Shown: positions 24,410-34,182, counted from the first letter of the stretch. The stretch: DNA of 64,000 nucleotides from Bacteroidales bacterium (GCA_045130275.1 JBGUPL010000081.1:1270-65269), one strand, 5' to 3'. Numbers and translations: made by a program. The notes: generated by a model from the letters alone, not told the origin.

Positions 24410-25609
24410 CTAGTTCGTGCGTCCTGGATAGACTTTCAGGGCTTCGCGGAGACACTCGACGGCTTTCTCCAAGTCGGAGACGTTGAGGCAATAGCTGATG
24501 CGGACTTCGTTGACGCCTTGGCCTTTCTTGGAATAGAAGCCGGTGGCGGGAGCGAACATCACGGTAGCGCCTTTGTAGCTGAAATCTTCGAGCAGCCAGC
24601 GGCAGAATTTGTCGGAGTCGTCGATGGGCAGACGTGCGACGCAGTAGAAGGCACCCTTCGGCATCGGGACGAAGCAGCCAGGGATGGCGTTCACGCCGTT
24701 GACGATGGTGTTGCGGCGGGCCACATACTCTTTGTTGACGCTGTCGAAATAGACCTTGGGGGTGTCAACGGCGGCCTCACCGAGAATCTGTCCGTAGGAC
24801 GGCGGGCTCAAACGGGCCTGCGCCATCTTCATGGCCGTGGCATAAACTTCCTTGTTATGCGTGATGAATGCACCCACACGCACGCCACATGCACTGTAAC
24901 GCTTTGATACAGAGTCTAAAAGCACTACATTGTCAGCAATGTCGGTCAGTTCCATGACGGAGAAGTGTTTCACGCCGTCATAGCAGAATTCACGATACAC
25001 CTCGTCGGCGAAGAGGAAGAGGTCGTGTTTTTTGGCGATCTCACCCAACTTCAGGATTTCCTCTTTGGAATAGAGGTAGCCGGTGGGGTTGTTGGGGTTA
25101 CAGATCATGATGGCCTTGGTCTTCGGAGTGATGACCTTCTCAAAATCCTCGATGGAGGGCAGCGCGAAGCCGTTCTCGATCGTGGAGATGATGGGTTTCA
25201 CCACCACGCCGCACATCGTGGCGAAAGCGTTGTAGTTGGCGTAGAAAGGTTCCGGGATGATGATTTCGTCGCCGGGGTCCATGCAGCTGTTGAAGGCGAA
25301 AAGGAGGCCTTCGCTGCCGCCGGTGGTGACGATGATCTCGTCAGTGGTGACCTCGATGCCCACGCTGTGGTAGTATTCCACCAGTTTCTTGCGGTAGCTG
25401 AGATTGCCGGCGGAGTGGCTGTAGGCAATCACCGGAATGTCGGCGTTGCGCACGGCGTCACGGGCTCCTTTCGGGGTCTCGATGTCGGGTTGACCGATGT
25501 TCAGATGATAAACGTGAATGCCGCGACTTTTGGCAGCATCGGAGAAGGGAACGAGCTTCCGAATAGGGGAAGACTGCATGCTTGCACCTTTTTGAGAAAT
25601 TTTCGGCAT
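24410..25609 (-). CDS. PLP-dependent aminotransferase (class I, aspartate-aminotransferase-like)
   Basis: SVSKRYSACGVRVG (PLP lysine), NPNNPTG and a typical length of 399 aa. Confidence 0.85.
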   Translation of the reverse strand: MPKISQKGASMQSSPIRKLVPFSDAAKSRGIHVYHLNIGQPDIETPKGARDAVRNADIPVIAYSHSAGNLSYRKKLVEYYHSVGIEVTTDEIIVTTGGSEGLLFAFNSCMDPGDEIIIPEPFYANYNAFATMCGVVVKPIISTIENGFALPSIEDFEKVITPKTKAIMICNPNNPTGYLYSKEEILKLGEIAKKHDLFLFADEVYREFCYDGVKHFSVMELTDIADNVVLLDSVSKRYSACGVRVGAFITHNKEVYATAMKMAQARLSPPSYGQILGEAAVDTPKVYFDSVNKEYVARRNTIVNGVNAIPGCFVPMPKGAFYCVARLPIDDSDKFCRWLLEDFSYKGATVMFAPATGFYSKKGQGVNEVRISYCLNVSDLEKAVECLREALKVYPGRTN

Positions 25610-25770
25610 AATTTTTTATGTTATTAGATTGATAATCAGTTAGATAGTTTTATCTATTTAAGTTGCAAATATACAAAATCTTTGTACTGTGCAATGATAA
25701 ATTTGATATTTATGCCGAATGAAGATCGAAGATTGGTGCAAGTCGATCTAGATGGGGATATTTCCGAACC

Positions 25771-26193
25771 CTATTCCACCACTACCTTCAGCACACGCTG
25801 GTAATCAGGACTATACACCCTAAGGCGGCACACATCGCCCGCATGATATAGCGAGTCGCTGAACCACATCCTGAACTCGGCGGAAGTGGTGAGCACCGCG
25901 CCGTTGCTGCCCCCGTTGTATCCTGTACCTTGCTGGTAGATGTGGAAATTGTCGCTCCCGTTGACCAGCGACTCCGGATAGCCCGTGGGAAGCTGCCAAT
26001 AGAAATCATAGTGTGAACGCTGGGAAACCGTCTTGATGCCAATCTCCTGGTATGAGTTCAGCGGGACCACAAGCGTATCGGAGGTAAGTTCCTCCCCTTC
26101 CACATAAAACCGCACACTCGGGTCCACCGCCGGCCGCTCGCAAGCAGCGATGACCAAGACAAACAATAGTGAAATAAAAGCTACTCTTTTCAT
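25771..26193 (-). CDS. lipoprotein, unknown function (last gene of the ECF-sigma operon)
   Basis: Lipobox VIAAC. Confidence 0.6.
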   Translation of the reverse strand: MKRVAFISLLFVLVIAACERPAVDPSVRFYVEGEELTSDTLVVPLNSYQEIGIKTVSQRSHYDFYWQLPTGYPESLVNGSDNFHIYQQGTGYNGGSNGAVLTTSAEFRMWFSDSLYHAGDVCRLRVYSPDYQRVLKVVVE

Positions 26194-26201
26194 AATTTTA
26201 A

Positions 26202-26236
26202 TAATTCTCTTAATTTCTTAGTTTCTTAATTCTTTT
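26202..26236. repeat. heptad array, TTCTTAA flavour
   Basis: TAATTCTC TTAATTTC TTAGTTTC TTAATTC, filling the spacer between two operon genes. Confidence 0.6.
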
Positions 26237-26238
26237 CA

Positions 26239-27963
26239 TTAGAACTCATATCCTATGCCAACACTTCCCAGACCCTTGTATCCGGCACCCAGTTCAATGC
26301 TGCCGAACACGTGGCGCCAGCCGGCCTTCACGCCCAACAGCGTCACGTGGAAGGTGGAGAACTGCGTGGGCGTATAGTCACCGTTTATGCCGTCGCTGAA
26401 CCACGGATGACGGTGCTCTGGGTAGGTGACATAGTAGCAATCCTCGGTGCCGAAAAATTGCGCGAACCCGACCGACAGAGCCGAATAGAGGGTGACGTGC
26501 GGACGGTTCAGATAGGAGAATCGCACCTCGGGCATCAAGGCAACCGAATAGAATTCGCGGTTGCAGGAAGCTATGAAATCTGAACCGTTTTGTATCTTTT
26601 CAGGATCCCGATAGTAGGCTGTACTGAGCGACAGGCCAAGCCAGAACCATTTAGCCACACGATAGTGGTAGCCGATGGAAAACACCGGTGTGCTGAAGAA
26701 ATCCTCGTTGCGCCAGCTGCGGTTGGGTTCCATGCTGTTCGGATAGACGAACACAAAGTAGCGGTCGAAGAGCATCACGCCCGTGGGGTCGCACACGTCA
26801 AATTTGAACTCGTGGCGATACAGCCCTTCTTCTCTCCACTTTTCACATTTCTCAGCACACCGTTTCGACTTTTGAAATGTCTGGATGAAAGTGATTTGCG
26901 TGTTGAACATATTGCTGCGCAAGCGGAAAGTACCGTTGTCGTATGAGACTGGCATTATGTGGTCAACTCCATTATAACCGTCAATCCGTACCGAATAGTT
27001 GCCGCTGGCGAAATCCCTGAACGGGAGGTCTATGCCGACGGTCCAGCGGAGCAGTCCACCGTAACCCAACCGGAAATAGAAACCCGCATTCGCCAGCAAG
27101 TCCACATGGAAGCGATTGGCATCCAGCACTTCCGGGGCCAGTCGCAGATGGTCGTAATACTCGGTGGTGTCAGGCAATATCAGGCCAGGCATGGAGTACG
27201 GACTGCTGACATCATTGTCGTAGCCAGCCACGAAGGTGTACCACGGCATACGGAGGCGCACGCCGGCAGAGAGCGTCACCCACACCTTCTGCGAAACGGG
27301 CGCGTGAAACTCGAACTTCACCGGCATTGAGAAACCGGTGCTGTAGATGCCATAGCTGGTGTTGTTAAAGGGCACTATGTTATCGTGTGTTATCCATGTC
27401 TCGTCATTGCGATTGTGGAAATGGAGTGCCCCTGTGGTGCCGTATTCGAGTCCTGCCAAGAGGCCGAGGTACTTGGCGAAGTGGTAGGCGAACTCCAACC
27501 CGACATGGCCGCCAATGGAATTTTTGGCCTTCATATGCTGTGTGTTAGACAGTTTCGCCTTGGACAAAATGTCGGCCTCCAGCACATAACCCAACTGGAA
27601 ACCCTTGAAGAACAGGGCCTCCGGCAGATCGGCATACCACTTCTTCTTCGGCTCTTTCTGATGGAGAGCCTTTTCTGAGGCGGGCGTTTGGATGGTCTGG
27701 ACGGTGGTGTCCGCCTTTGCGGGGAGCGTATTCTCCTCTCCATTCAGACTTTCGGCGGCCTTCTCGTTTCCGACGTTATGATGAAGCCGGATGGTGTCGT
27801 GCAGGAATACCGTGTCACGGGAGACGATGGTGTCATAAACCTTTTGTGTCTCAATCACGTAGATGGTGTCGCGCTGTTGCGCCGCAAGCTCGTCCATCCC
27901 CGCCAGCATCAGCACGACAACCAGCATCAGGCTATATTTCTTGAACATGAACAGATCTTTCAT
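26239..27963 (-). CDS. large predicted outer-membrane beta-barrel protein, unknown function
   Basis: Start set at the ATG at 27963 (MKDLFMFKKYSLMLVVVLMLAG). The track start at 27972 is a TTG. N-terminal DT[IV] repeats, strand-like periodicity and a C-terminal GYEF. Confidence 0.65.
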   Translation of the reverse strand: MKDLFMFKKYSLMLVVVLMLAGMDELAAQQRDTIYVIETQKVYDTIVSRDTVFLHDTIRLHHNVGNEKAAESLNGEENTLPAKADTTVQTIQTPASEKALHQKEPKKKWYADLPEALFFKGFQLGYVLEADILSKAKLSNTQHMKAKNSIGGHVGLEFAYHFAKYLGLLAGLEYGTTGALHFHNRNDETWITHDNIVPFNNTSYGIYSTGFSMPVKFEFHAPVSQKVWVTLSAGVRLRMPWYTFVAGYDNDVSSPYSMPGLILPDTTEYYDHLRLAPEVLDANRFHVDLLANAGFYFRLGYGGLLRWTVGIDLPFRDFASGNYSVRIDGYNGVDHIMPVSYDNGTFRLRSNMFNTQITFIQTFQKSKRCAEKCEKWREEGLYRHEFKFDVCDPTGVMLFDRYFVFVYPNSMEPNRSWRNEDFFSTPVFSIGYHYRVAKWFWLGLSLSTAYYRDPEKIQNGSDFIASCNREFYSVALMPEVRFSYLNRPHVTLYSALSVGFAQFFGTEDCYYVTYPEHRHPWFSDGINGDYTPTQFSTFHVTLLGVKAGWRHVFGSIELGAGYKGLGSVGIGYEF

Positions 27964-27968
27964 AATTC

Positions 27969-28547
27969 TCAATTTTCAATATACACGGTATCTTTGACAA
28001 CGACAGTTTCGTTGATTCGCACGGTGTCGCGCTGGACGACAGTCTTCTTGATGATGACGGGCTCGGATGTTGTGGATGTCGCTGTGGTTTTGGGAGTTGT
28101 CGTTTTGACGGTTTCCTCCTTTTGAGAAGAAACCTTGGAACTATTTGAAGCGGTTGATGTTTGGCTCCCCGGCTCAACAACAGCCTGCTCAGAGGATTCT
28201 TCTGTATAAAGGACAGTACTGTCTGTGAAGGGCTCTTCCGATAAGGAGTCAGCCGTCACCAAGGCGGTTTGTTCGGCGGGAAGCTTTGAGGGCGTCTCGT
28301 CTTGCAGTGCGTGCGTGACCAGCAGGGTTCCGCCCACGCCCACGGCGAATGAGACGGTCCCTATCAGGATCTCCTTGGCGTGCGACAGCAGCCAGATGCC
28401 CGCGCCGGTTTTGGAAGCGGCTGCGGCAGCGGCAACCTGGGCGTCTGTCATCGGGGCCTGCGGCATGCGGGAGACCTCGGAGACGCCCCGCTCAAACAAT
28501 CGGTCCAAATCTTTAGCACTGCTCATATGATTCTTATGTCGTGTCAT
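27969..28547 (-). CDS. single-pass membrane protein, possible anti-sigma-like component
   Basis: ~80-aa cytoplasmic head, TM helix ILIGTVSFAVGVGGTLLV, S/T/E-rich linker and a C-terminal DTV repeat motif. Confidence 0.55.
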   Translation of the reverse strand: MTRHKNHMSSAKDLDRLFERGVSEVSRMPQAPMTDAQVAAAAAASKTGAGIWLLSHAKEILIGTVSFAVGVGGTLLVTHALQDETPSKLPAEQTALVTADSLSEEPFTDSTVLYTEESSEQAVVEPGSQTSTASNSSKVSSQKEETVKTTTPKTTATSTTSEPVIIKKTVVQRDTVRINETVVVKDTVYIEN

Positions 28548-28617
28548 GAATGGAAATGAGGGATGGTTGGGTTTTGTTGAATTGTCACTATATTACGATT
28601 TTTTTGGCTGTTGGCCG

Positions 28618-29043
28618 TTAGAATGTGAGGGTGTTCTGATACCAGAAGGTACCGTCAATGTTGATAGTGATCGTGTAGGTGCCACTGCGAATGTTGTGAA
28701 GTGTATATTCCAATGTCTTGGAACACAAACAGTCCGCAGAGATGTTGTCATCCACGCTATAGTTGATGACGATGTCGTTTCCTGCTATCTGTGCATTCAC
28801 ATCCACGTTGGAAGCTGCACAGTTGAGCAACATTTCGTGGGTGACGTGCAAGACGCCGTGAGAATAGGAGAAGACAGGATCGCTTTCGCCGTCCTTCTCA
28901 CCAGCATGGCAGGATGAGAGTTCAGAATCCGATACCTGCACATCCGTGTGAATGACCGGTCTTTCACAGGCCAGCAGCAGCCATAGGCCAGCCAAGCCTA
29001 TGACAGATATTAAACTAAGGGTGATACTGATCTTTTTCATCAT
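28618..29043 (-). CDS. lipoprotein, unknown function
   Basis: Lipobox LLLAC. The stop codon lies in GGCCGTTAG next to TTGGCTGTTGG. Confidence 0.6.
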   Translation of the reverse strand: MMKKISITLSLISVIGLAGLWLLLACERPVIHTDVQVSDSELSSCHAGEKDGESDPVFSYSHGVLHVTHEMLLNCAASNVDVNAQIAGNDIVINYSVDDNISADCLCSKTLEYTLHNIRSGTYTITINIDGTFWYQNTLTF

Positions 29044-29054
29044 ATTGATTGTCT

Positions 29055-29100
29055 CTTTAACTTTGAACTCTTAATTTCAAACTCCTAATTTTTAACTTCC
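29055..29100. repeat. heptad-like array (CTTTAAC TTTGAAC TCTTAAT TTCAAAC TCCTAAT TTTTAAC TTCC)
   Basis: 7-bp period. Overlaps the stop and the last codons of the 174-aa gene. Confidence 0.6.
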
Positions 29101-29609
29101 AAGTAGTTACTTTCTTCCGTCGCTTGGTAATGCTCGTCCGTGATGGTAAAAGTGAGTTTCCCATAGGATGGATGACCGTTGAACCAGCGGCCGTAGTGGC
29201 GTGTCTCCTCATATTGATAGAGGGTGGAACTGAAATTATAGGGACTGATGCCTGTTGTGTCCCCAGCATAATACATTACTTGCGGCCCAAGTTCCCCATC
29301 GAAGCGAAAAGTCACGCTGTTACTGTAATATTGGAGAAATGCCTGTACCCCTTCTTCAAAACTGGCAGCACCGACACCGCCGGAGTGTTGTATCACCACT
29401 TCCTGCCCCGGGACAAGCGTGTAACTTTCGTTTGTCCAGGTATGGGTGGAGTCCGTTCCACTATCGTACCAGCTATATGGGGCGGGGATGACGGTCACGC
29501 TGTGCGAAGAGGCGTTACGGATGAGCATATCCTCGTTGTAGCCTGGATCGCAAGCGGTGGCCAGCACCGTTAGCAAGATAATTGCTGTGAATTGTATCGT
29601 CAATTTCAT
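29085..29609 (-). CDS. lipoprotein, unknown function
   Basis: Lipobox LATAC. Confidence 0.6.
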   Translation of the reverse strand: MKLTIQFTAIILLTVLATACDPGYNEDMLIRNASSHSVTVIPAPYSWYDSGTDSTHTWTNESYTLVPGQEVVIQHSGGVGAASFEEGVQAFLQYYSNSVTFRFDGELGPQVMYYAGDTTGISPYNFSSTLYQYEETRHYGRWFNGHPSYGKLTFTITDEHYQATEESNYLEVKN

Positions 29610-29649
29610 ATCTGTATTATTTGGAATTTACCATCATTTTTTTCTTGTT

Positions 29650-29740
29650 ACCCGCACACCTGCGGCGTGCGAATCTCTATCGACATCGTCCTTCCCTACC
29701 GAGTCTTGCAGACCTGACGTTCTGCACCGAGGTCTCATAT
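29650..29740 (-). repeat. two-hairpin REP-like element inside the ECF operon
   Basis: Hairpins at 29653-29671 and 29708-29725 with the CCCTACCGAG linker. Homologous to 11985-12075. Confidence 0.75.
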
Positions 29741-29756
29741 CCAACTTCTTAACTTC

Positions 29757-30368
29757 TCATTTCTTTAGAAAAGTATAGCAGAAACCATCATACATTCCGT
29801 CTTCGCACATCGAAAACACTTGCCCCTCTGCCTCGCTGTAACCGAGGGTGGCGAGAAACTTGTGCGGCGTGGCCAACGAAATCTTCCCGTTGAAGGCATC
29901 TGCGATTTTTTTATGTTGCGACTCGGTAAGTCGGAAGCGTATGTTGAACCAGGAATAGAAAGGTTCGTCCTGGTCTCCCTTGTTGGTGTATAACGTTTCA
30001 TCCACGTCATAATCAATGTGATAGGTTCCGGAGACAACCTTCTCGCCATCTTTAAGTAGGGTGAAACTGCTGCCGTTGAAGACGAGTTCGGCCTCGAAAC
30101 CTTCGCTCTCGGGAGTGAACCACACGCCGGCGATGCTTCCCGTAGTAGCGGTCCACCGCCAGGTACCGTCAAGTGCTTTCTTTTCGGGTTTCGTGCATGC
30201 GGTCATCAGGAAAGCGACAGCCACCAGGAGGATGGCTACGCCCCAAACTGCGCTGCGCTTGGGTGTGGTTACTTGCCCTGTCGAGCTCTTGCCCCTTGAA
30301 CTACCCCGTCCTTCGGGCACCCCTTCTAAAAGATGGGGAATGGACTGCTTAAGGAATAATGTTGCCAT
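29757..30368 (-). CDS. lipocalin-like lipoprotein with an unusual 40-aa N-terminal extension
   Basis: Lipobox FLMTAC, then LDGTWRW (lipocalin-like start). The only in-frame ATG (30368) and the first ~35 codons lie in a REP-like element. Confidence 0.55.
   Translation of the reverse strand: MATLFLKQSIPHLLEGVPEGRGSSRGKSSTGQVTTPKRSAVWGVAILLVAVAFLMTACTKPEKKALDGTWRWTATTGSIAGVWFTPESEGFEAELVFNGSSFTLLKDGEKVVSGTYHIDYDVDETLYTNKGDQDEPFYSWFNIRFRLTESQHKKIADAFNGKISLATPHKFLATLGYSEAEGQVFSMCEDGMYDGFCYTFLKK
30267..30359 (-). repeat. expanded copy of the TTCCTTRAGCAG...GGGGCAAGAGCTCGACAGGGCA element, inside the annotated coding sequence
   Basis: Reverse strand reads TTATTCCTTAAGCAG...CCCCATCTTTTAGAAGGGG...GGGGCAAGAGCTCGACAGGGCAAG. 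Compare 34280-34336 and 52458-52500. Confidence 0.65.
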
Positions 30369-30380
30369 AATATAAATTTT

Positions 30381-30899
30381 TTAGTTTCTTAATTTCTTGA
30401 TTCTCATCGCCGTCAGCATCCCTTGTAATTCCGCCCTTGCGCGGGAGAGCAGCACTTTGGAGTTGGCGATGGAGATGTCCAGTTTTTTGGCAATCTGTTT
30501 GTGCGACCAGTGTTCTACCGCATAGAGGTTGAAGACCGTGCGCTGCTTGACACCCAGTTTCTGAATCACCTCCTCGAAATCCTCCCGCGTGAACTCGAAC
30601 CCATCCATCGTTTTTTCCTCTATCTCCTCCACAATTATGTCGGGAAGATTGTCGTCCGCCGCCACCATTTCGGGGCGGTCGCGCAGGTACATCAGCGACT
30701 CGTTGACGGCTATCTTCTTTAGCCACCCCTCGAAACTGCCCCACGCGTGATACGAACTGCCCTTTTCCATCGCCTTCAAGAAAGCGTCCTGCGCCAAATC
30801 CTCCGCCACCTGCCAGTCGCCGATATAGCGATAGCATACGCCCACCATCTTGCCGATGTTGCGTCGGTACTCCTTTGCCCAGAATTCAGCTTTCTTCAT
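30381..30899 (-). CDS. ECF-type RNA polymerase sigma-70 factor
   Basis: Region 2 (DLAQDAFLKA) and region 4 HTH (SHKQIAKKLDISIANSKVLLSRAR). The C-terminal RIKKLRN and the stop codon are encoded by heptads GAATCAA GAAATTAA GAAACTAA. Confidence 0.85.
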   Translation of the reverse strand: MKKAEFWAKEYRRNIGKMVGVCYRYIGDWQVAEDLAQDAFLKAMEKGSSYHAWGSFEGWLKKIAVNESLMYLRDRPEMVAADDNLPDIIVEEIEEKTMDGFEFTREDFEEVIQKLGVKQRTVFNLYAVEHWSHKQIAKKLDISIANSKVLLSRARAELQGMLTAMRIKKLRN

Positions 30900-31004
30900 C
30901 TATTCTTGCCGTTCTAAAATGTAGATGCAAAAATACAAAATGGTTACAAAAAAAATGTATTTTCGCCGTCTATTTTGTTATGCATTGTGCATTGAGAATT
31001 GAAA

Positions 31005-31899: not shown

Positions 31900-33171
31900 A
31901 TGCAGAAACAGCCGTTAGCAGAGATCCTTCGCCCGCACTCTATTGAGGGCTACATCGGTCAGGAGCACCTGATGGGTGAGGGGGCGGTGTTGCGCACGGC
32001 CATCGAGAGCGGCAACATCCAATCGATGATCTTCTGGGGACCGCCGGGCGTGGGCAAAACGACTCTCGCACTGTTGATTGCGCAATCCATCGACGCGGAG
32101 TTTTTCACACTCAGCGCCATCAGCAGCGGCGTGAAGGACATTCGCGAAGTCATCGACAAGGCCAAGAAGTCCGAAAAACGCTGCATCCTCTTCATCGACG
32201 AAATCCACCGCTTCTCCAAGTCGCAGCAGGACTCGCTGCTCGGCGCGGTGGAGCAGGGCGTGGTCACCCTCATCGGCGCCACCACGGAGAACCCCTCTTT
32301 CGAAGTCATCTCCCCGTTGCTCTCCCGCTGTCAGGTTTATGTTTTGAAAGAACTTTCCAAAGATAATCTTGAGCAGCTGCTGCAAACCGCTATCGGTTAT
32401 TTGGAAGGGCAGATGAACTGCAAAATCAAATTGGAGAACACGGAAGCCCTGATGCGCATTTCCGGTGGAGATGCCCGTAAACTACTGAATGCTATTGAAT
32501 TAGTGTCTTGGATGACCCCGCCTGTGGATGGCGTCATTACGCTCACCCGCGAGCAAATCATCCATGTCATTCAGCAGAATTTGGCGCTTTACGACAAGAA
32601 GGGTGAACAACACTACGACATCATTTCCGCGTTCATCAAGTCGTTGCGCGGCAGCGACCCCAACGCCGCGGTCTATTGGATGGCTCGGATGCTGGTGGCC
32701 GGAGAGGACCCGCTCTTCATCGCCCGACGCATGGTCATCCTCGCATCCGAAGACATCGGCAACGCCAACCCCAATGCGCTGTTGCTAGCCAACAACTGCT
32801 TTCAGGCAGTGAACGTCATCGGGATGCCGGAAGCGCGCATCGTGCTGTCGCAAACAGCTGTGTATCTGGCCTCTTCGCCCAAGAGCAACGCCTCCTACAT
32901 GGCCATTGAGAATGCCTACGGGCTTGTCAAGCAGACCGGCGACCTCTCCGTGCCGATGCACATCCGCAACGCCCCGACCAAGCTGATGAAGGAACTCGGC
33001 TACCACAAGGGCTACCAATACGCTCACGATTACGAACACAATTTCGTGAATCAGGAGTTCCTGCCCGAGCAGATTGCGGGTACGAAACTCTACGAACCGC
33101 AGAACAATCCTCGCGAAAACGAACTGAGACGCTATCTGAGAAGCTGTTGGAACGAGAAATACCGCTATGTG
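31900..33171 (+). CDS. rarA: replication-associated recombination protein A (AAA+ ATPase), lacking its own stop codon
   Basis: Walker A GPPGVGKTT, Walker B ILFIDEIHRF and the MgsA C-terminal helical domain. The frame continues uninterrupted into the next module. Confidence 0.85.
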
Positions 33172-34182
33172 ATGCTGTTGCTGGCAGCACTGACTTTTTT
33201 TTTTAAGATAACTTTCGCCCAAGATTATCACTTTTCCCAATTTTATGCTAACCCGACAGGTGTGAATCCCGCATTGACGGCAGCTTTCGATGGCGTGGTG
33301 CGTGGTTCTGTCATTATGCGCTCACAATGGCTGGCGGTTTCCAAGCCGTTTATGACGATGGGCGCAGAGGTCGATGGCGCGGTCTATAAGAACCATCGAC
33401 GGCAGGAATTGTTGGGCCTCGGGCTCACGTTCAACGGCGACAAGGCCGGCGATGTGAATTATCGTTCCGTGCAGGCGGTGTTGTCAATGTCGTACATCAA
33501 AAACATTGGCCGCCACAGCCGTCACAAACTCGGACTGGGACTATACGGGGGCATCATCAATAACCATTTTGATGTGGATCCCAGTACATGGGATATGCAG
33601 TTCGTGGATGGTGTTTTCTATCCCTATCTTCCTAGTGGTGAGAATTTTGAGACAATCCAACGACTGTACGCGGATTTCGGCGCGGGAGCGTTTTGGAGCT
33701 TTTTGCCCACCAAGACGGTGCTCTTGCGGGCTGCAGTCAGTGCCTCGCATATCAACCGACCATTCTATGGCTTCGGGGAGAGCAATGCGCGGCTGCCCGT
33801 GAAGTACACCGCCCATTTCTATTCGCAGATTGCTCTTAGTCGCGAAATCTCTTTGTCTCCAATGTTTTACGCTTCCTGGCAACGTTCGCTCAGCGAGTAT
33901 TTGTTCGGATGTAATGTGGAATATTTCAACAAGAAAAACAGCTATACCACGCTTTATACGTTAGGCGGCGGACTCCTTTACCGATGGAATGATGCGCTGA
34001 TTTTCAATGGATTTGTGAGTTGGCAGAATCTCCGCTTCTCCATCGCATACGATGTCAATGTGTCGCCGTTTGTGGTGGCTACGCACGGGCGCGGCGGTCT
34101 GGAAATCGCCGTGTCTTACATTTTCAAGAAGAGGACTATTACGAGGATTGGGAAGGAACCGTGTCCGTATGACATTATGTAA
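33172..34182 (+). CDS. PorP/SprF-family type IX secretion membrane protein (in frame with rarA)
   Basis: Internal ATG at 33172 opens a signal peptide MLLLAALTFFFKITFAQ, followed by the family N-terminal motif DYHFSQFYANPTGVNPALTA. Confidence 0.75.
   Translation: MLLLAALTFFFKITFAQDYHFSQFYANPTGVNPALTAAFDGVVRGSVIMRSQWLAVSKPFMTMGAEVDGAVYKNHRRQELLGLGLTFNGDKAGDVNYRSVQAVLSMSYIKNIGRHSRHKLGLGLYGGIINNHFDVDPSTWDMQFVDGVFYPYLPSGENFETIQRLYADFGAGAFWSFLPTKTVLLRAAVSASHINRPFYGFGESNARLPVKYTAHFYSQIALSREISLSPMFYASWQRSLSEYLFGCNVEYFNKKNSYTTLYTLGGGLLYRWNDALIFNGFVSWQNLRFSIAYDVNVSPFVVATHGRGGLEIAVSYIFKKRTITRIGKEPCPYDIM
33195..33204 (+). repeat. T10 homopolymer in the PorP-like signal peptide codons
   Basis: ACT TTT TTT TTT AAG. 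Either +1 or -1 slippage creates an immediate TAA stop. Confidence 0.9.

Follow-up and report, generated by a model that had tools for sequence, protein, structure and literature searches.

The seven genes at positions 25771-30899 of a 64,000-nt stretch of DNA from an uncultured rumen Bacteroidales bacterium (GCA_045130275.1 JBGUPL010000081.1:1270-65269; hereafter the window, meaning the whole stretch that was analysed) raise the question of whether an operon headed by an extracytoplasmic function (ECF) sigma factor and otherwise made up of uncharacterised envelope proteins is an undescribed system, as an initial annotation had proposed, or a known one in altered form. We consider it probable that the operon is a two-piece, trans-envelope switch for its sigma factor, of the Das/Dma (EcfO/Reo) kind. 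The Dma/Reo anti-sigma factors were described only in 2022-2024, and control the production of outer-membrane vesicles, toxin tolerance and gut fitness in Bacteroides. The operon lies on the minus strand, and its genes, numbered in their order along it, are as follows.

30381-30899, minus strand: g1, ECF sigma factor, 172 aa, unfused, matching Sigma70_r2, Sigma70_r4_2 and TIGR02937
29757-30368, minus strand: g2, lipoprotein, 203 aa, lipobox Cys58, with a conserved GTW-W-T-GGIAG core
29085-29609, minus strand: g3, lipoprotein, 174 aa, lipobox Cys20, conserved across loci
28618-29043, minus strand: g4, Cys-rich lipoprotein, 141 aa, lipobox Cys26, a variable operon member
27969-28547, minus strand: g5, predicted anti-sigma factor, 192 aa, one hydrophobic helix
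26239-27972, minus strand: g6, predicted outer-membrane barrel, 577 aa from TTG or 574 aa from the ATG at 27963
25771-26193, minus strand: g7, lipoprotein, 140 aa, lipobox Cys18, 3' of the barrel gene

As the initial annotation had it, these are seven co-directional open reading frames (ORFs), and from g1 to g7 they are separated by 12, 147, 41 and 70 nt, a 4-nt overlap between g5 and g6 (a distance of 5 nt if g6 starts at its ATG), and 45 nt. Profile matches to sigma-70 regions 2 and 4 (PF04542, Sigma70_r2, E 1.3e-14; PF08281, Sigma70_r4_2, E 2.2e-14) and a TIGR02937 score of 86 bits, for which the cut-off is 42.9, bear out the naming of g1 as a sigma factor; having regions 2 and 4 only, and a length in the range of about 170-200 aa, it belongs to the ECF class (sigma-70 group 4). 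The two small proteins of 174 and 141 aa, g3 and g4, and the final one, g7, had been called lipoproteins and do carry lipoboxes. None of g2-g7 reaches a curated family threshold in Pfam and NCBIfam scans, five of the seven operon proteins being without an assignment in either database, and scans of all seven find no TonB-type receptor, FecR domain or enzyme domain, as had been noted. The earlier reading of the locus as a self-contained envelope-signalling operon holds. What does not hold is the suggestion that the system is undescribed, as the core formed by the sigma factor, g5 and g6 maps onto the published dual membrane-spanning anti-sigma systems, Das/Dma (EcfO/Reo) (PMC10927553, PMC13114119), and single-chain homologues tie g5 directly to g6.

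A Dma protein begins with a sigma-binding N-terminus, crosses the inner membrane with a single helix, continues as a long disordered tether and ends in an OMP_b-brl_2 barrel at its C-terminus; its partner is an ECF21 sigma factor (Das, EcfO) (PMC10927553, PMC13114119). The first three of these parts can be recognized in g5, which ends in a short repeat array.

28374-28547, minus strand: cytoplasmic head of g5, residues 1-58, the predicted sigma-binding segment, from homology to fused paralogues
28305-28373, minus strand: inner-membrane helix of g5, residues 59-81, hydrophobic, with K/R on its N-terminal side
28050-28304, minus strand: periplasmic tether of g5, residues 82-166, rich in S, T, E and P, of low complexity and poorly conserved
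27972-28049, minus strand: C-terminal period-6 tail of g5, translated as KKTVVQ/RDTVRI/NETVVV/KDTVYI-EN

Having one helix in the inner membrane and, beyond it, a long disordered tether in the periplasm, g5 is the single-pass membrane protein that had been predicted, with a cytoplasmic head of about 58 residues rather than about 80. Its role as the anti-sigma partner, suspected earlier even though it is not adjacent to the sigma gene, is supported by homology to paralogues in the same genome in which a sigma factor is fused to a g5-like head, helix, tether and tail in one ORF (C81:111241-112320, C42:31901-32968, C2:24457-25512 and C93:5531-6580). g5 aligns over its full length with the C-terminal half of these fusions, its head falling on the segment immediately C-terminal to sigma region 4. 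The C81 and C42 fusions have a separate secreted barrel gene directly 3', and for the C2 fusion a head-bearing barrel is found on contig C20, which probably adjoins it upstream of the sigma gene. Among relatives in the genus, which are known from RUG and RGIG metagenome-assembled genomes, the sigma factor is fused to a g5-like part in 13 of 20 regions. In an AlphaFold2 model of the C81 fusion (pLDDT 69, pTM 0.60), the sigma2 and sigma4 domains are confident (>90) and the head helices at residues 187-232, corresponding to g5 residues 9-52, are ordered (pLDDT 82-94); a membrane helix at 234-260 follows, and then a tether and tail that are disordered (pLDDT <40). From this model, the head of g5 is predicted to dock on g1 and hold it.

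The fourth part of a Dma protein, the barrel, is absent from the g5 polypeptide, which ends in a stop codon. It is found in g6, which is read in another frame than g5 and has a signal peptide of its own, a split that is conserved in more than 20 loci.

27880-27972, minus strand: signal peptide of g6, cleavage context A-A/Q32, with A31 nearly invariant and Q32 invariant
27784-27873, minus strand: N-terminal period-6 head of g6, translated as RDTIYV/IETQKV/YDTIVS/RDTVFL/HDTIRL
26242-27615, minus strand: barrel region of g6, residues 120-577, ending GYEF, from AlphaFold2, Foldseek and PF13568

The prediction of a 574-aa barrel is supported by a weak match to OMP_b-brl_2 (PF13568; E 1.2e-4, 22.7 bits, cut-off 27) and by an AlphaFold2 barrel model, and many members of the g6 family carry precomputed PF13568 or PF13505 matches. 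The model (pLDDT 62, pTM 0.44) was built from an alignment of 33 g6 relatives with 32-91% identity (A1); residues 22-111, including the head (pLDDT <35), are disordered in it, and strands are found at 124-365 and 387-576 (pLDDT 70-89). The best local Foldseek matches are to the 8-stranded OmpW and OprG (TM 0.51-0.58 over about 250 columns), and the barrel is a single 308-aa unit in L061 and L062 and takes the form of two separate barrels on C20. On account of these local matches, and of the relatives with one or two separate barrels, g6 is most likely a pair of tandem small beta-barrels. A single large FadL/TodX-like barrel, to which the top Foldseek E-values point, was rejected, its global TM being about 0.2 against the local 0.51-0.58 for OmpW/OprG, and relatives carrying one barrel or two separate ones. 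In the barrel protein at C81:109514-111244 and its relatives (A1 columns 101-160) the repeat head is separated from the barrel by an additional segment, which ends in a signal-peptide-like stretch, KKYGLAGLMLLGLNSLAPAQ; it is present in the single-chain proteins P0261 and P0326, described below, and not in the g6 of the window.

The most direct link between g5 and g6 comes from proteins in which the two are joined. A single-sequence search with g5 against 300 Bacteroidales genomes returned one marginal match outside its own genome, to the tail (E 6e-4, in G007), because g5 is too divergent, and a profile of the g5 family was used for a wider search against 1.84 billion representative proteins. 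This gave 106 matches, falling mainly into length classes of about 160-230 aa (unfused) and about 335-390 aa (sigma-fused), together with a few longer ones that are single chains running from head to barrel. One of them, P0260, has 53% identity to g5 residues 9-80 (E 1e-19) and 39% to g6 residues 45-370 (E 2e-74); a second, P0270, aligns with the g5 profile at an hhalign probability of 97.8% and with g6 residues 27-577 at 30% identity (E 3e-75). P0261 is a 600-aa protein with everything from sigma factor through barrel in one chain, and is represented by 14 cluster members from independent assemblies, and P0326 is an unfused single chain from head to barrel; these chains are themselves uncharacterised proteins. 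Given that single-chain relatives join a g5-like head to a g6-like barrel, g5 and g6 are, as judged from sequence, the two halves of a Dma-type protein. The possibility that they are a frameshifted pseudogene of a single-chain Dma protein was rejected, because conservation extends to the split itself, the signal peptide and its cleavage site, and other genes are able to sit between g5 and g6.

The arrangement found in the window is widespread. The order sigma-g2-g3-(g4)-g5-barrel-g7 recurs in L001, L002, L003, L005, L008, L009, L045, L061 and L062, extends down to 38% identity in g6, and is kept well beyond the strain, in at least 12 species-level genomes of one rumen genus. The g6 family has matches in 36 of 36 genomes of this genus, with 2-10 per genome, and in 1 of 24 genomes of other families. 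How the unfused sigma factor and anti-sigma factor relate to the more common fusion was addressed with a tree of sigma domains, in which Dma1-type and other sigma factors served as outgroups. The unfused, window-type clade (support 100/99) is nested among fused clades, as sister to the fused L044 (98/98), and on the strength of this nesting the unfused g1/g5 pair looks to have arisen by fission, with lipoprotein genes captured in the gap. Other rearrangements of the module were encountered as well. In L010:7944-9701 and L053:2288-4045, both from one genome, the barrel signal peptide is fused in frame to a fragment of the sigma ORF, MERADTCRATGNFLAWLMRI; most of the gene for the sigma/anti-sigma fusion has apparently been lost by deletion. 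At C85:40872-42635 (minus strand) lies the sigma gene that is closest to the sigma factor of L036, the Dma1-type locus discussed below, in the window's own genome (40%); it has a separate 197-aa PF13568 barrel on its upstream side and, downstream, a 178-aa anti-sigma-like protein with a single helix, possibly another split arrangement, without DT repeats.

The two broken ends of g5 and g6 carry matching repeats, both the tail of g5 and the head of g6 being period-6 arrays of the form x-[DE]-T-φ-x-φ. In the 33 aligned g6 sequences, D35/T36, D47/T48, D53/T54 and D59/T60 of the head are invariant, as are T175, D186 and T187 of the g5 tail in 13 family members. Among 22,004 frames of the window's own genome there are 5 in-phase arrays of at least three hexads, and 5/5 belong to modules of this kind. 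A census covered 20 regions taken from 16 other genomes. Sixteen of the barrels in it bear a DT head, and upstream of 15 of these there is a gene that encodes a tail (12 sigma-fused, 3 g5-like), adjacent in 14 cases and about 2 kb away in L043; the one without, L053, is the deletion variant mentioned above. The three headless barrels have no sigma or anti-sigma gene nearby (0/3). The same pairing of tail and head is found in G007, which belongs to a different family. Among the single-chain proteins, P0270 and P0326 are without DT repeats and P0260 retains one relic. Each DT[VIL] unit also matches the general O-glycosylation motif of Bacteroidota, D-(S/T)-(A/I/L/V/M/T) (PMC8550257), and the repeats are likely to be glycosylated on Thr; part of their conservation may stem from this modification. 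Repeats of this type were observed in two further settings. At C93:4811-6580 (minus strand) a sigma/anti-sigma fusion is followed by a 236-aa protein with a signal peptide, a DTLY head and, at its C-terminus, an alpha-helical membrane domain, so that the repeat head can sit on a different output module. At C13:68365-68919 (plus strand), outside any sigma module, a 184-aa protein has an N-terminal membrane helix, TVRVTTVTRTDTLHVTDTVFF repeats of the DT type and a beta-rich C-terminus; it adjoins a putative cell-wall amidase, judged from the sequence only, in what is possibly a prophage lysis region.

Upstream of the sigma gene there is a sharply defined motif.

30924-30948, minus strand: predicted autoregulated ECF-type promoter, TGTAACC-N10-TTTGCATC, 24 nt 5' of the sigma ATG

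The motif is invariant in ten of ten window-type loci, in which the flanks are otherwise unalignable, and ends 22-26 nt 5' of the sigma ATG in all of them. It occurs as a single exact copy in the window, with no second copy within the operon. A scan of 55 genomes of the genus found 70 matches, compared with 2 for a reversed control, and of 31 copies inspected, 20 are 5' of g1-type sigma genes, 1 is 5' of a g6-type barrel, 1 is 5' of a g7-like lipoprotein and 9 are 5' of other genes, whose products have an apparent signal peptide or lipobox; in L085 (G312), a g7-like gene has its own copy. The sigma genes of paralogues carry variants with GCGTC instead of GCATC, which fits ECF -35/-10 elements of diverged specificity. 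A looser pattern, GTAACC-N13-17-GCATC, is at chance level in the genome (6 matches, about 8 expected) and was discarded, only the strict, T-rich form being informative. A second exact copy in the window's own genome, at C59:872-896 (minus strand), lies 49 nt 5' of a lipoprotein gene, the orthologue of which in G327 encodes 388 aa, and a near-copy with a spacer one base longer, at about C59:5930 (minus strand), lies roughly 290 nt 5' of a radical-SAM/SPASM gene; both sites mark candidate regulon members. The operon (minus) strand showed no terminator-like site, and a housekeeping-type motif is present 5' of the next gene after the operon. The sequence ATTTTGTAT(A/T)TTTGCA(A/T)C is common to 30923-30941, in the sigma promoter, and 25661-25679, 5' of an aminotransferase gene (24410-25609). 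It contains the housekeeping-type TAnnTTTG element of Bacteroidetes, and the sigma promoter may thus overlap a sigma-A type -7 box.

Taken as a two-piece switch, the operon would work as follows. The head of g5, about 58 aa long, would hold g1 at the inner membrane, and the tail of g5 would meet the head of g6 in the periplasm, giving a non-covalent link from inner to outer membrane where Dma proteins have a single chain. g6, perhaps together with g7, would sense a disturbance of the outer membrane, upon which g5 would be degraded and g1 released. Free g1 would then fire its own promoter, TGTAACC-N10-TTTGCATC, and with it the whole operon, including g2, g3, g4 and g7, and would also drive a few other genes for lipoproteins or outer-membrane proteins elsewhere. 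As for the link itself, one could speculate that the DT[VIL] repeats are a dedicated, O-glycosylated coupling element, in which a short, strand-forming tail and a matching head zip together in the periplasm; the integrity of this wire, or its glycosylation state, could then be what is monitored, a loss of contact exposing the free C-terminus of g5 to a tail-specific protease and thereby activating the sigma factor. This proposal for the repeats is tentative, and we regard it as possible rather than probable.

The comparison with characterised systems can be carried further. Like Das/Dma systems, the operon is confined to Bacteroidota and combines an ECF sigma factor with an anti-sigma factor that has a short head, one inner-membrane helix and a disordered tether, a distal barrel that is probably of the OMP_b-brl type, and lipoprotein genes in operon or regulon. 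An example of the Dma1 type was found in another Bacteroidales genome (L036), consisting of a sigma factor, a 434-aa protein (N-terminal helix, PF13568 E 5e-18) and a NigD-like lipoprotein. Its sigma factor is 42% identical to g1 (E 9e-35), and the two give identical sub-threshold NCBIfam matches (TIGR02985, NF058625). Unlike in Das/Dma systems, the anti-sigma factor and the barrel of the window are two polypeptides, the barrel having its own signal peptide; period-6 DT repeats mark the break on both halves; the barrel part, about 450 aa long, probably comprises two barrels, in place of one 8-stranded barrel; and the sigma factor is set apart from the anti-sigma factor by three lipoprotein genes. 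Moreover, NigD lipoproteins predominate in Das/Dma regulons, and one of them has its gene beside the system (PMC10927553), whereas the lipoproteins of the window are not NigD: g2, g3, g4 and g7 have no NigD match (NF051862, Pfam NigD) at E up to 1, while the L036 lipoprotein hits NF051862 (E 9e-7), and NigD membership was rejected.

Dma3 (BT_2778) of B. thetaiotaomicron is a Dma that carries a sigma domain at its N-terminus (PMC10927553, PMC13088901). The paralogues in the window's own genome (C81, C42, C2, C93) and most relatives in the genus resemble its published architecture in having sigma-head-helix-tether fusions, and P0261 resembles it in running from sigma factor to barrel as a single chain. 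With a sigma-fused paralogue as query, the search returned only fusions of 330-370 aa from rumen metagenomes and did not reach Dma3 of B. thetaiotaomicron. The operon differs from Dma3 in that its sigma factor is separate again, by what appears to be a derived fission, and in nearly all relatives the barrel is a separate gene. With FecI/FecR/FecA the operon shares a division into three proteins, namely an outer-membrane sensor, an inner-membrane anti-sigma factor and an ECF sigma factor, and a proposed protein contact in the periplasm. It lacks a TonB-dependent transducer, an N-terminal signalling domain and a FecR domain, its outer-membrane component is a small barrel, and its contact elements would be short repeats and not folded domains. 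Signalling of the FecR/TonB type was rejected, no such domains being present in the seven proteins; a DUF4249 lipoprotein and a TonB-dependent receptor with CarboxypepD_reg, Plug and barrel domains are inserted between the g5 and g6 orthologues of two loci (L002:4509-7870 and L008:4483-7840), an insertion that the window lacks. What is new here is the division between two polypeptides that bear matching DT repeats, the tandem barrel, the lipoprotein genes between sigma and anti-sigma factor, and lipoproteins that are not NigD.

A number of points weigh against a two-piece Dma-type switch. Neither g5 nor g6 has detectable sequence similarity to the Dma1-type protein of L036, the one bona fide example that was compared. 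The Pfam match of the g6 barrel is below the gathering threshold, the docking of the head on the sigma factor is read from pLDDT values alone, and the single chains P0260 and P0270 are singletons from read-level assemblies. The rooting of the sigma tree relies on outgroup and midpoint only, and some of its branches are long. The insertion of two genes between g5 and g6 in L002 and L008 means that tight coupling of the genes is not required. As DT[VIL] is a general sequon, its conservation need not reflect pairing, and P0261, a single chain that retains the tail repeats, weakens the notion that repeats are confined to split proteins.

Several of these points are what one would expect if g1 and g5 were a conventional sigma/anti-sigma pair, with g6, g7 and g2-g4 as the output of the regulon and the DT arrays as O-glycosylation clusters, for example a collar that shields against proteases, that do not bind each other. 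The exact correspondence of DT[VIL] to the glycosylation motif (PMC8550257), the separability of g5 and g6 by two genes and the repeats kept by the single-chain P0261 all favour such a pair, and so do the disorder of both repeat regions when modelled in isolation and the occurrence of the promoter motif directly 5' of barrel and g7-like genes elsewhere, which makes these regulon members. We nevertheless hold this explanation to be unlikely. The single-chain homologues, by joining the g5 head to the g6 barrel, indicate that the two were, or can be, one sensor, and heads and tails are paired, with hardly an exception, at the facing ends of neighbouring genes (15/16 vs 0/3). The sequon, furthermore, permits S and six residues at its third position, yet in the repeats T is invariant, the period is strictly 6 and there is an extra hydrophobic position, and the covalently linked P0270 and P0326 do without repeats altogether.

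Tail and head could also each dock on a third partner, such as peptidoglycan, a periplasmic lectin-like protein or one of the operon lipoproteins, or else homo-oligomerise, in which case the coupling of g5 to g6 would be indirect. The units of head and tail are of the same kind and not obviously complementary, the C93 head is on an alpha-helical membrane protein and not a barrel, similar repeats follow the membrane helix of the protein in the possible prophage lysis region, and g2 and g3 are strictly tied to the unfused type, all of which would suit such an arrangement. No candidate partner is conserved across the fused and unfused types, however, and we find a third partner improbable; the data do not discriminate it from direct contact. 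That the operon is an undescribed self-contained system unrelated to known signalling families, as five of seven proteins without a Pfam or NCBIfam assignment and a g6 family nearly confined to one genus (36/36 vs 1/24 genomes) might suggest, is highly improbable in view of the architecture and single-chain homologues that link its core to the Dma family and the 42% identity of g1 to the sigma factor of a Dma1-type locus.

If the operon is indeed a two-piece Dma-type switch, it offers a handle on two questions that are open for Dma proteins, namely how the signal gets from one side of the periplasm to the other and how a single chain comes to be inserted into two membranes (PMC10927553, discussion), as the natural two-piece version has a short invariant repeat at each broken end. 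The halves can be separated for expression, mutation and cross-linking, the repeats can be made glycosylation-null, the single-chain and fused relatives can serve for comparison, and the sharply defined promoter motif is a ready reporter. The locus also illustrates how modules evolve, through fusion and fission of sigma factor, anti-sigma factor and barrel and the capture of lipoprotein genes, in a family that has expanded genus-wide in rumen Bacteroidales together with uncharacterised lipoprotein cargo. Should the repeats prove to be a coupling element, they would represent a new principle of trans-envelope signalling, and a natural way around assembling one protein into two membranes.

The lipoproteins differ in how closely they follow the core. 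g2 is present in all type-A loci, with 42 invariant columns in its alignment (A3), g3 is conserved in L001-L003, L005, L008, L009, L045 and L061, and both are strictly linked to the unfused type. g4 was detected in the window, L002 and L061 alone; L001, L003, L005, L008 and L009 lack it. g7 always comes 3' of the barrel, and is kept there in L001, L002, L004-L007, L012, L061 and L062. Whether or not a sigma gene is present, some lipoprotein gene follows every g6-like barrel examined in the window's own genome and the majority of those examined in relatives. Neither g3 nor g4 has a family match in Pfam or NCBIfam, and a search of g7 against PDB profiles gives noise-level, Ig-like hints (E 0.1). 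The initial annotation was right in taking g2 for a lipoprotein, as its lipobox attests; the description as lipocalin-like rests on hints that are all sub-threshold (TIGR03067, E 0.012; transthyretin, E 0.009; avidin family, E 0.3), no match to g2 rising above noise in Pfam, NCBIfam or PDB profile searches.

The start of g2 coincides with a dispersed repeat.

30284-30363, minus strand: dispersed repeat of about 70-80 nt over the 5' end of the g2 ORF, found by blastn

The repeat has 38 blastn matches in the window's own genome at 90-94% identity, and tblastn with g2 residues 1-50 likewise gives matches on many contigs. A REP-like element that had been reported from the spacers therefore exists, but it lies over the 5' end of the g2 ORF (about 30284-30363), of which it makes up the first 35-45 or so codons; the hairpins in the g2-g3 spacer have one short second match only (blastn, own genome). 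In L005, L009 and L045 the repeat is 5' of g3 or g2 and lengthens those ORFs. In the L005 and L009 orthologues an ordinary lipoprotein signal peptide stands in place of the repeat. The true start of g2 is uncertain, because no alternative start gives the protein of the window a normal signal peptide.

The spacers contain A/T-rich tandem arrays (unit AAGAAAYT) at 26187-26231, 29058-29097, 29743-29762 and 30375-30402, which fall exactly on stop/start-codon junctions of the operon genes; they had been described as heptad arrays, but the actual periods are 8, 9 and 14. In L045, L061 and L062, arrays with a CACTGNT unit are found upstream of the sigma promoter. Outside the operon, at 31900-34182 (plus strand), the frame of a RarA/MgsA-type AAA+ ATPase runs on, with no stop codon between, into that of a PorP/SprF-like membrane protein of type IX secretion. 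The result is a 760-aa ORF in which the PorP/SprF-like part keeps an ATG and a signal peptide of its own; the match to the L003 orthologue covers residues 1-704 of this ORF, up to the end of the locus.

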